Program-made: the position numbers and the translations under genes
The notes under the pieces: model-generated
What the model was told of the DNA's origin: nothing
What the model saw: the letters and a program-made list of their open reading frames with translations, nothing else
Databases searched by the model: none
Assembly: GCA_003170475.1 (NCBI GenBank)
Contig: PMZI01000051.1
Coordinates: forward strand, 249-64,248
Direction: 5' to 3'
Length of the DNA stretch: 64,000 nucleotides
From: Ignavibacteriota bacterium
GTDB taxonomy: Bacteria; Bacteroidota; Ignavibacteria; UBA10030
Part shown: piece by piece, positions 23,008 to 23,138 of the stretch
Layout of the letters: each line of letters begins with the position of its first letter
Position numbering within the stretch: position 1 is the stretch's first letter

Positions 23008-23138
23008 ATTGCCGATTGGCGATTTTCGATTGTCGATGGAACAGCGACTTGGTATTTCAATCCCACTCATCAATCGGAAATCATAAATCGGGAATTGGCA
23101 ACCTGTGTATCAACAAATCGTAAATCGAGAATCGTAAA
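23008..23138. repeat. 7-nt-periodic inverted repeat array in the nuoD-nuoE spacer
   Basis: About five tandem CGATTnn heptads (GATTGCCGATTGGCGATTTTCGATTGTCGATGG) are followed after ~20 nt by about seven nnAATCG heptads (TCAATCGGAAATCATAAATCGGGAATTG...CAAATCGTAAATCGAGAATCGTAAATTGG). The two halves are mutually reverse-complementary. Confidence 0.6.

Follow-up and report, generated by a model that had tools for sequence, protein, structure and literature searches.

The 64,000-nt stretch of the Ignavibacteriota contig PMZI01000051.1 analysed here, referred to in its entirety as the window, carries, in the region 20375-27258, a nuo operon made up of nuoABCDEF only, nuoG-N not being adjacent, and between nuoD and nuoE lies a self-complementary array of 7-nt repeats. 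This element is a heptad-repeat palindrome free of open reading frames (ORFs), of a class that is common in the intergenic spacers of its Ignavibacteriales/Bacteroidota relatives. The operon is otherwise tightly packed: nuoA and nuoB overlap by 10 nt, gaps of 3 nt separate nuoB from nuoC and nuoC from nuoD, and 6 nt separate nuoE from nuoF, so that an initial annotation of this DNA was right to single out the nuoD-nuoE spacer as unusually long. From the nuoD stop codon to the nuoE ATG (23145-23147) it measures 137 nt, not the 131 nt first given. Gene calls on identical metagenome contigs are PF00346 (NuoD), PF01257 (NuoE) and PF01512 (NuoF). The features of the junction, with the evidence for each in brackets, are as follows.

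23005..23007, forward strand: nuoD stop codon, TAG (translation; PF00346 gene calls on identical contigs; heptad decomposition)
23007..23041, forward strand: left arm, GATTGCC GATTGGC GATTTTC GATTGTC GATGGAA (period 7 in Tandem Repeats Finder, TRF; inverted repeats I1-I6; decomposition)
23042..23069, forward strand: loop or central segment, 28 nt, non-repetitive and ORF-free (sequence)
23070..23104, forward strand: right arm 1, TCAATCG GAAATCA TAAATCG GGAATTG GCAACCT (TRF period 14; fold; direct repeat D1 with right arm 2)
23105..23113, forward strand: linker between right arms 1 and 2, 9 nt (sequence)
23114..23148, forward strand: right arm 2, CAAATCG TAAATCG AGAATCG TAAATTG GAAATGC (TRF; fold; 7-nt indel; ensemble pairing)
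23145..23624, forward strand: nuoE, 159 aa, PF01257 (translation; gene calls on identical contigs)

Architecture, folding and alleles of the nuoD-nuoE array

The spacer decomposes into three blocks of five heptads, one of GATTnnC on the left and two of the reverse complement, nnAATCG, on the right; the left arm and right arm 1 each consist of four good heptads and one degenerate heptad. The blocks run into both flanking genes, the last base of the nuoD TAG being the first base of the first heptad and the nuoE ATG lying inside the last heptad of right arm 2 (GAAATGC). A heptad-periodic, self-complementary array at roughly these coordinates, with about five heptads on the left and their reverse complement on the right, had been proposed in the initial annotation and is borne out here, but the right-hand set forms two blocks of five rather than a single run of about seven, and the loop has 28 nt rather than about 20. 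This loop is partly conserved in locus L010, as TGGTATTT(T)CAAT.CCA.TCAT (loci used for comparison are designated by L numbers). Identities at lag 7 number 69 of 137 in the spacer, against 35.0 +/- 5.1 (maximum 53) in 5000 shuffled sequences (z=6.7), with lags 14 and 21 likewise raised, and TRF finds two tracts of period 7 (23007-23037 and 23115-23139) and one of period 14 (23067-23095); tandem 7-nt units, head to tail and at least three in number, are thus present beyond chance expectation. The pentamers AATCG and CGATT occur 8 times in 144 nt, compared with 3.45 per kb window-wide. Stretches with at least 19 of 28 matches at lag 7 are found three times in the 64 kb, twice in this spacer and once before tsaD, and all other lags from 4 to 15 combined give two. 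One other array in the window, that of the tsaD leader, has an nnAATCG-type unit, and the 64 kb hold no identical copy. Over 25-30 nt the arms of the nuo palindrome show 77-80% complementarity, which is enough for a stem of at least ~20 bp like that of a ribosomal RNA intervening sequence (IVS).

Folded as RNA, the 151-nt region reaches -38.2 kcal/mol (z=-1.88, with 7 of 200 shuffled sequences as good), and a fold restricted to the left arm and right arm 1 reaches -30.4 kcal/mol (z=-2.70, 2 of 200), so that the long imperfect hairpin first suggested for this spacer is moderately better than its shuffled controls. The antisense RNA folds about equally well (-36.9), and with DNA parameters the z-score is -0.99. 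The left arm can form an inner hairpin with right arm 1 or an outer hairpin with right arm 2, both with A-U rich, interrupted stems of ~22-23 bp, and in the ensemble given by the partition function it is expected to form 17.2 base pairs with right arm 2, compared with 6.5 for right arm 1. In the predicted outer pairing the stem begins 4 nt past the nuoD stop, ends 2 nt short of the nuoE AUG and spans 96% of the spacer.

Among 10 contigs of the same species from independent samples, which encode identical NuoE, the spacer is identical except in L003 and L005, where exactly one heptad (7 nt) of right arm 2 is missing and the rest of the ~170-nt alignment is unchanged. Copy number therefore changes in one-unit steps between close strains, and the heptad palindrome is slippage-prone, its length changing by whole heptads. 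For the shorter allele the partition function predicts pairing with right arm 1 only (22.1 vs 0.0 bp), and the predicted unpaired probability at positions -20 to -1 of nuoE goes from 0.27 to 0.48.

Heptad arrays and PF05635 cassettes in relatives

Relatives were sampled as 1.3 Mb of nuoD-centred loci from Ignavibacteriales/Bacteroidota, the nearest being uncultured metagenome-assembled genomes with NuoD identity of up to 93%. The corresponding spacers were compared, as the initial annotation had suggested: across 80 species the nuoD-nuoE spacer usually has 20-200 nt and is very often heptad-periodic, with units that are specific to lineages (GATTnnC, ATTGCGG, AAAAGTn, AGGATGA, GTCATTn). The sample holds 76 arrays at lag 7, as against 0-13 at lags 4-6 and 8-13 and 31 at lag 14, itself a multiple of 7; 25 of the 76 lie in nuoD-nuoE spacers and 51 elsewhere. 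An inverted partner, usually 5-60 nt off, accompanies 42 of the 76 arrays (2 of 76 in a reversed-sequence control), 55 are located between co-directional genes and a single one between divergent genes, and the repeat units vary from site to site within single genomes. At the nuoD-nuoE junction, arms of the GATTnnC family persist from 100% to ~75% NuoD identity, predicted folds have z<-2 in 22 and z<-3 in 12 of 62 spacers, and the outer helix starts at a median of 4 nt past the nuoD stop. Four relatives (L054, L057, L063, L065) have there, instead of heptads, a GC-rich stem followed by a T-run, which is terminator-like.

The element is thus not nuo-specific, contrary to one possibility raised initially, for similar arrays occupy other spacers in relatives, nuoB-nuoC among them, and one precedes tsaD in the window. 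Dispersed copies had been named as the mark of a generic repeat; the generic kind does recur in relatives, but the copies are neither identical nor similar to miniature inverted-repeat transposable elements (MITEs). The nuoB-nuoC heptad palindrome (GAATACA/GGAGACA, at ~9320-9510) is found in L042, L046, L056, L059, L061 and L062, a subclade at 70-72% NuoD identity; compensatory changes affect 7 of the 25 pairs of this hairpin and the covariation term is slightly unfavourable, so that covariation evidence is weak. Syntenic sites around locus coordinates 2700, 4200 and 19300 repeatedly carry further palindromes, composed of different units. In L033 (1753-1946) a duplication of ~68 nt repeats the last codons of nuoD together with the heptad array (gcggataaataaattgcgaatttcgaaatgtcaattgcgaattg...), which points to a local event of duplication or recombination there.

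PF05635 is the family of the 23S rRNA intervening-sequence protein (IVP), a four-helix bundle related to Avd of diversity-generating retroelements. The nuoD-nuoE spacer of L025 has 464 nt and contains a 120-aa ORF that matches this family (E=1.2e-14), and further PF05635 genes are present at the same junction in L073, L074, L087 and L088, as well as in the metagenome loci L091, L092 and L095, the metagenome scan for IVP having used an alignment of three closer sequences. All five PF05635 genes of the 1.3-Mb sample fall in the nuoD-nuoE spacer and, save for that of L087, with period 8, they are flanked by inverted heptad arrays. Because the relatives' loci are centred on nuoD, sampling accounts in part for the excess of arrays and IVP genes seen at this junction. 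Locus L016 corresponds to L025 minus a clean internal stretch of 308 nt; the arms remain, as do the ORF's final 22 codons, and this sequence comparison indicates that ORF-less heptad hairpins can arise from PF05635 cassettes by deletion. A first heptad that overlaps the stop codon, TA-GATT(T/G)(C/T)(C/G) (the hyphen marks where the heptad begins after TA), is common to the window (GATTGCC), L011 (GATTTCC), L048 (GATTTTC), L013, L016 and L025 (TA-GATTTCG in the last two). Since the window and L025 have this heptad in common, the window arms are, judging from sequence, orthologous to the arms of the PF05635 cassette of L025 at the nuoD-nuoE junction, and the window element would on that account be an IVP cassette either in its empty form or reduced by deletion.

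The same junction holds a gene for a putative endonuclease of the Uma2 family (PF05685) in L060 (7779-8219) and L067 (5977-6687), with no obvious heptad arms. As Uma2 genes sit there as well as IVP genes, the gene content of these spacers indicates that the nuoD-nuoE junction is a general insertion hot spot, ancient and repeatedly occupied.

The association between PF05635 genes and heptad arms extends beyond this junction. With at least 15 of 18 matches taken as the criterion, inverted flanks are found in 16 of 19 PF05635 genes with both flanks present, against 2.1% of 1212 control ORFs, and a lag-7 or lag-8 array on one side together with an inverted match in 10 of the 19, against 4 of the 1212. 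In a plasmid-borne set, mostly from Nostocales and other cyanobacteria, 13 of 14 PF05635 genes adjoin a lag-7 array (at least 16 of 21 matches) and 7 have matching inverted flanks. On 18 of 21 flanks the neighbouring gene has the orientation of the IVP gene. One locus of this plasmid-borne set is a true rRNA IVS: L125 (plasmid AZO_p2 of Azospirillum lipoferum 4B, 1-957) has an unannotated PF05635-like ORF inside a 23S rRNA gene (Rfam large subunit rRNA, LSU, 404.9 bits, LSU model positions 960-1458), and its arms are heptad-periodic (GACAGAG GACGGAG GACAGAA), similar to the GACAGAT of Coxiella. Some IVP cassettes (L087, 11237-11876; the flanks of L108 and L109) have arms of period 8 (GGATGATT GAATGATT; AATTGTTA), so that the period of cassette arms is not strictly 7. 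In two cyanobacterial plasmids, L120 (Pseudanabaena galeata, 190-780) and L121 (Anabaena sp. 90), a PF05635 gene stands immediately upstream of cas4 in a CRISPR-cas locus; in L120 cas6 is on its other side, and the flanks are long direct, not inverted, heptad arrays with at least 15 AAAGCTA upstream and ~10 AAAAGCC downstream. In the literature, our coverage of which was incomplete, we found no general link between IVP and heptamers beyond the Coxiella case, and the cross-phylum association of PF05635 with inverted heptads may be new, as may the origin of ORF-less hairpins by deletion.

Relation to known repeat elements

The initial annotation recognised no standard element class in the array, which can nevertheless be placed as a heptanucleotide hairpin of the short tandemly repeated repetitive (STRR) kind (PMC2670836) with the stem architecture of an IVS (PMC4990558). 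In cyanobacteria, STRR hairpins of 7-bp units lie between hupS and hupL, where their function is unknown and a role in transcript stability or translational coupling has been proposed (PMC2670836). The nuo array shares with them the tandem 7-bp hairpin units and the position between co-transcribed genes of a respiratory-type enzyme operon, and cyanobacterial PF05635 genes are themselves flanked by heptad arrays; it differs in its Ignavibacteriales/Bacteroidota host and in its unit, GATTnnC/nnAATCG. According to Mazel et al. in 1990, STRR families are reportedly defined by specific cyanobacterial heptamers, which are not those of the nuo array. As organism and units differ, the nuo array is not an STRR in the strict sense.

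ORF-less rRNA intervening sequences exist, as in Salmonella. In Coxiella, the IVS has tandem GACAGAT heptamers before the S23p ORF, in two or three copies depending on the strain, cleavage by RNase III takes place at the first of these repeats, within a stem of 28 bp, and the authors consider the IVS selfish, its ORF in decay (PMC4990558). The nuo element resembles the 23S rRNA IVSs of Coxiella, Leptospira and Azospirillum (L125) in its terminal inverted repeats and a stem of ~20-30 bp; the arms are heptads in Coxiella and Azospirillum, and the nuo arms appear orthologous to those of an IVP cassette. Unlike the IVS, which carries a PF05635 ORF in its loop, it has no ORF, and it lies in an mRNA spacer rather than in helix 9, 25 or 45 of 23S rRNA, no rRNA having been found in the window. 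Because it is sited in mRNA and is ORF-free, it is not an rRNA IVS. Covariance models of Rfam 15 gave nothing at the gathering threshold in the window but three tRNAs elsewhere, and no match at E<=1 in 22900-23250.

Other heptamer systems offer partial parallels. The (ATCTTTC)n hairpin in the 5' untranslated region (UTR) of Haemophilus influenzae hmw1A, whose processing by RNase III sets expression (PMC12721329), is likewise a heptamer-repeat hairpin of varying copy number, but its partner arm is a G-rich non-repeat, whereas both nuo arms are heptad arrays, and it belongs to a contingency locus, where it follows a promoter as part of a 5' UTR, unlike the nuo array in its intra-operon spacer of a housekeeping operon. 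TAACTGA heptamers form direct repeats upstream of start codons in Beggiatoaceae, Cyanobacteria and some Bacteroidetes, with strains differing by 7-nt indels (PMC4679880). Direct heptamers a few nt upstream of a start codon recall right arm 2 and the tsaD leader array; however, TAACTGA is one genome-wide unit with 169 direct sets and 1 indirect, whereas the arrays described here are inverted pairs and, in relatives, their units are site-specific. Repetitive extragenic palindromes (REPs) and bacterial interspersed mosaic elements are intergenic palindromes too, often inside operons, and REPs can stabilise the upstream part of an mRNA; they consist of many near-identical dispersed copies without 7-nt periodicity, unlike the sites of the relatives, each with a unit of its own. 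An identity as MITE or REP was provisionally set aside, as the 64 kb of this genome that were analysed hold no identical copy and the sites in relatives have their own units.

A second array of the window lies in front of tsaD:

15172..15209, forward strand: weaker heptad array, GGAATTC AGAGATC GAACATC GGAAATC GGAAATA (TRF; sequence; lag-7 scan; alignment with L011)

Its unit is that of the nuoE leader and it ends just upstream of a TTG start; it has no inverted partner and is separate from the nuo hairpin. An explanation of this array as a coding N-terminal extension was rejected: in the alignment with L011 the called tsaD ATG at 15137 reads ATT, and TTG 15211 and the array are conserved. For this reason tsaD probably starts at 15211 and the array would be its leader. 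At the other side of the nuo genes, nuoF is directly followed by a gene for an extracytoplasmic function (ECF) type sigma factor (24918-25724, PF07638/PF04542) and by one for a 510-aa protein without a Pfam match.

Proposed function and competing explanations

The reading that we favour, and hold to be probable if only by a narrow measure, is that of an ORF-less IVS-type, STRR-like heptad hairpin with ancestry in an IVP cassette and a role in translational coupling, in RNase III processing, or both. Of the options that were offered initially, the long imperfect hairpin or processing site in the polycistronic mRNA and the degenerate mini-element fit best. The hairpin would be transcribed within the nuoABCDEF mRNA, and its left arm, starting on the nuoD stop, would pair with one of the two right arms. 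The outer pairing would bring the nuoD stop and the nuoE start together and mask the nuoE initiation region (-29 to -4). Because the stem starts within the footprint of the terminating ribosome and masks this region, a ribosome terminating on nuoD would melt the base of the stem and free the nuoE start, and the outcome would be hairpin-mediated translational coupling across the 137-nt insertion. By analogy with rRNA IVSs and the Haemophilus hmw leader, a stem of ~22 bp may also be long enough as an RNase III substrate, and heptad slippage would shift the balance between the two pairings.

Several observations weigh against this account. We infer transcription through the spacer, cleavage and coupling alike, all functional statements resting on sequence and thermodynamic prediction, and the same holds for the allele-dependent switch of pairing, which is a thermodynamic prediction. 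The significance of the fold in the window is moderate (z about -1.9 to -2.7), and the minimum free energy structure of the window allele in a 191-nt context shows the other pairing than the ensemble, so that the two are near-isoenergetic. Strand asymmetry is lacking: of 25 hairpins, 13 fold better in the sense and 12 in the antisense strand, the sense strand has no excess of G-U pairs (62 vs 80), and among 62 nuoD-nuoE spacers the sense fold is the better one in 34 and the antisense fold in 28, so these data do not tell RNA structure from a palindrome at the DNA level. Seven relatives have spacers of just 9-20 nt, and the hairpin is thus dispensable in some lineages; others (L023, L032, L079, L086) have direct-only arrays that form no hairpin. 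As to ancestry, a profile search with a hidden Markov model in all six frames found no PF05635 remnant in the spacer of the window or of its closest relatives, and there is no PF05635 gene anywhere in the window, so that descent from an ORF-bearing cassette is shown for L016 only.

Some of these observations would also suit a neutral or selfish relic, either what is left of an IVP cassette as it decays or a palindrome renewed by slippage, tolerated with no role in nuo expression, an explanation that we consider possible, although on balance doubtful. The junction has been invaded repeatedly, with PF05635 genes in at least eight loci and Uma2 genes in two, L016 lost its ORF and left the arms behind, the seven relatives with short spacers do without the element, pairing has no sense-strand bias, and the Coxiella IVS is viewed as selfish by its own authors (PMC4990558). 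A mere relic fits less well with arms that reach exactly from stop to start, with the persistence of arms of one unit family over such a range of NuoD identity, with the enrichment of hairpin potential at the junction (the 22 of 62 spacers with z<-2), or with the frequent presence of another hairpin in lineages lacking heptads (L054, L057, L063, L065), which suggests that structure is wanted at this site. A different role, which we regard as improbable, would be that of an array binding a protein on single-stranded RNA, in which the A-rich heptads are tandem sites for a cold-shock domain protein, S1 or a CsrA-like protein that sets initiation where Shine-Dalgarno use is weak, the left arm being merely an anti-sequence. 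In its favour, RRAAATC/nnAATCG units abut two unrelated starts within 64 kb (nuoE ATG 23145 and tsaD TTG 15211), neither nuoE, whose leader is the A-rich heptad array, nor tsaD has a Shine-Dalgarno motif upstream, such motifs being rare across the window, and the TAACTGA repeats that precede start codons have been interpreted in this way (PMC4679880). Inverted pairs make up over half of the arrays, however, which would be superfluous for single-strand binding, the start-proximal arm is pyrimidine-rich in many hairpins, and because units differ from site to site in single genomes one sequence-specific factor cannot explain the class.

The two transcriptional explanations raised by the initial annotation fare worse. 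An intrinsic terminator or attenuator that lowers transcription of nuoEF relative to nuoABCD would be in keeping with a hairpin located just past the nuoD stop and with the GC-rich stem and T-run of the four relatives mentioned, but in the window the stems are A-U rich and interrupted, a terminator scan found no terminator-like site in the spacer, and no U-run follows either hairpin (GGCAACCUGUG trails right arm 1 and CCCCACGUG trails right arm 2), which makes attenuation very unlikely. Least likely of all is an array bound at the DNA level by a transcription factor or nucleoid protein that drives an internal nuoE promoter. A multimeric DNA-binding protein could be accommodated by tandem heptads present on both strands, there are precedents in the TTTTGAT heptads of the Vibrio ctxAB promoter and in the repeats bound by Streptomyces antibiotic regulatory proteins (SARPs), and the hairpins have no RNA-specific signature. 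A promoter-proximal array of the ctxAB or SARP type is nonetheless unlikely: the site is inside an operon, the spacer contains no forward-strand sigma-70-like promoter and only a weak minus-strand promoter-like match, only 1 of 76 arrays is in a divergent spacer as against 55 between co-directional genes, and the units differ between sites of one genome.

The ORF-less heptad hairpin that we favour would explain the conspicuous nuoD-nuoE spacer without a new nuo regulator, and it predicts a stem that joins the nuoD stop to the nuoE start and a flip between the pairings upon slippage by one heptad. If the location of PF05635 genes between inverted heptad arrays were general, it would offer a concrete way to approach the question why, among the long simple repeats of bacteria, those of heptanucleotides are the most common, and it would bear on what STRRs and IVS proteins do. 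A wider proposal, which we put forward tentatively and as more of a conjecture than an expectation, is that heptad hairpins, and by extension STRRs, are the ORF-less form or the landing pads of one cross-phylum family of IVS-type cassettes. The cargo would be the PF05635 gene, inserted in sense orientation inside transcribed units (rRNA genes or protein operons), the stem would restore the continuity of the host transcript (through an rRNA helix or through stop-start coupling), and the 7-nt periodicity of the arms might reflect the action of the IVP protein, of RNase III or of both on the stem. If true, this would connect three things that have long lacked an explanation: STRRs, the intervening sequences of rRNA and what the 'S23 ribosomal protein' family does.

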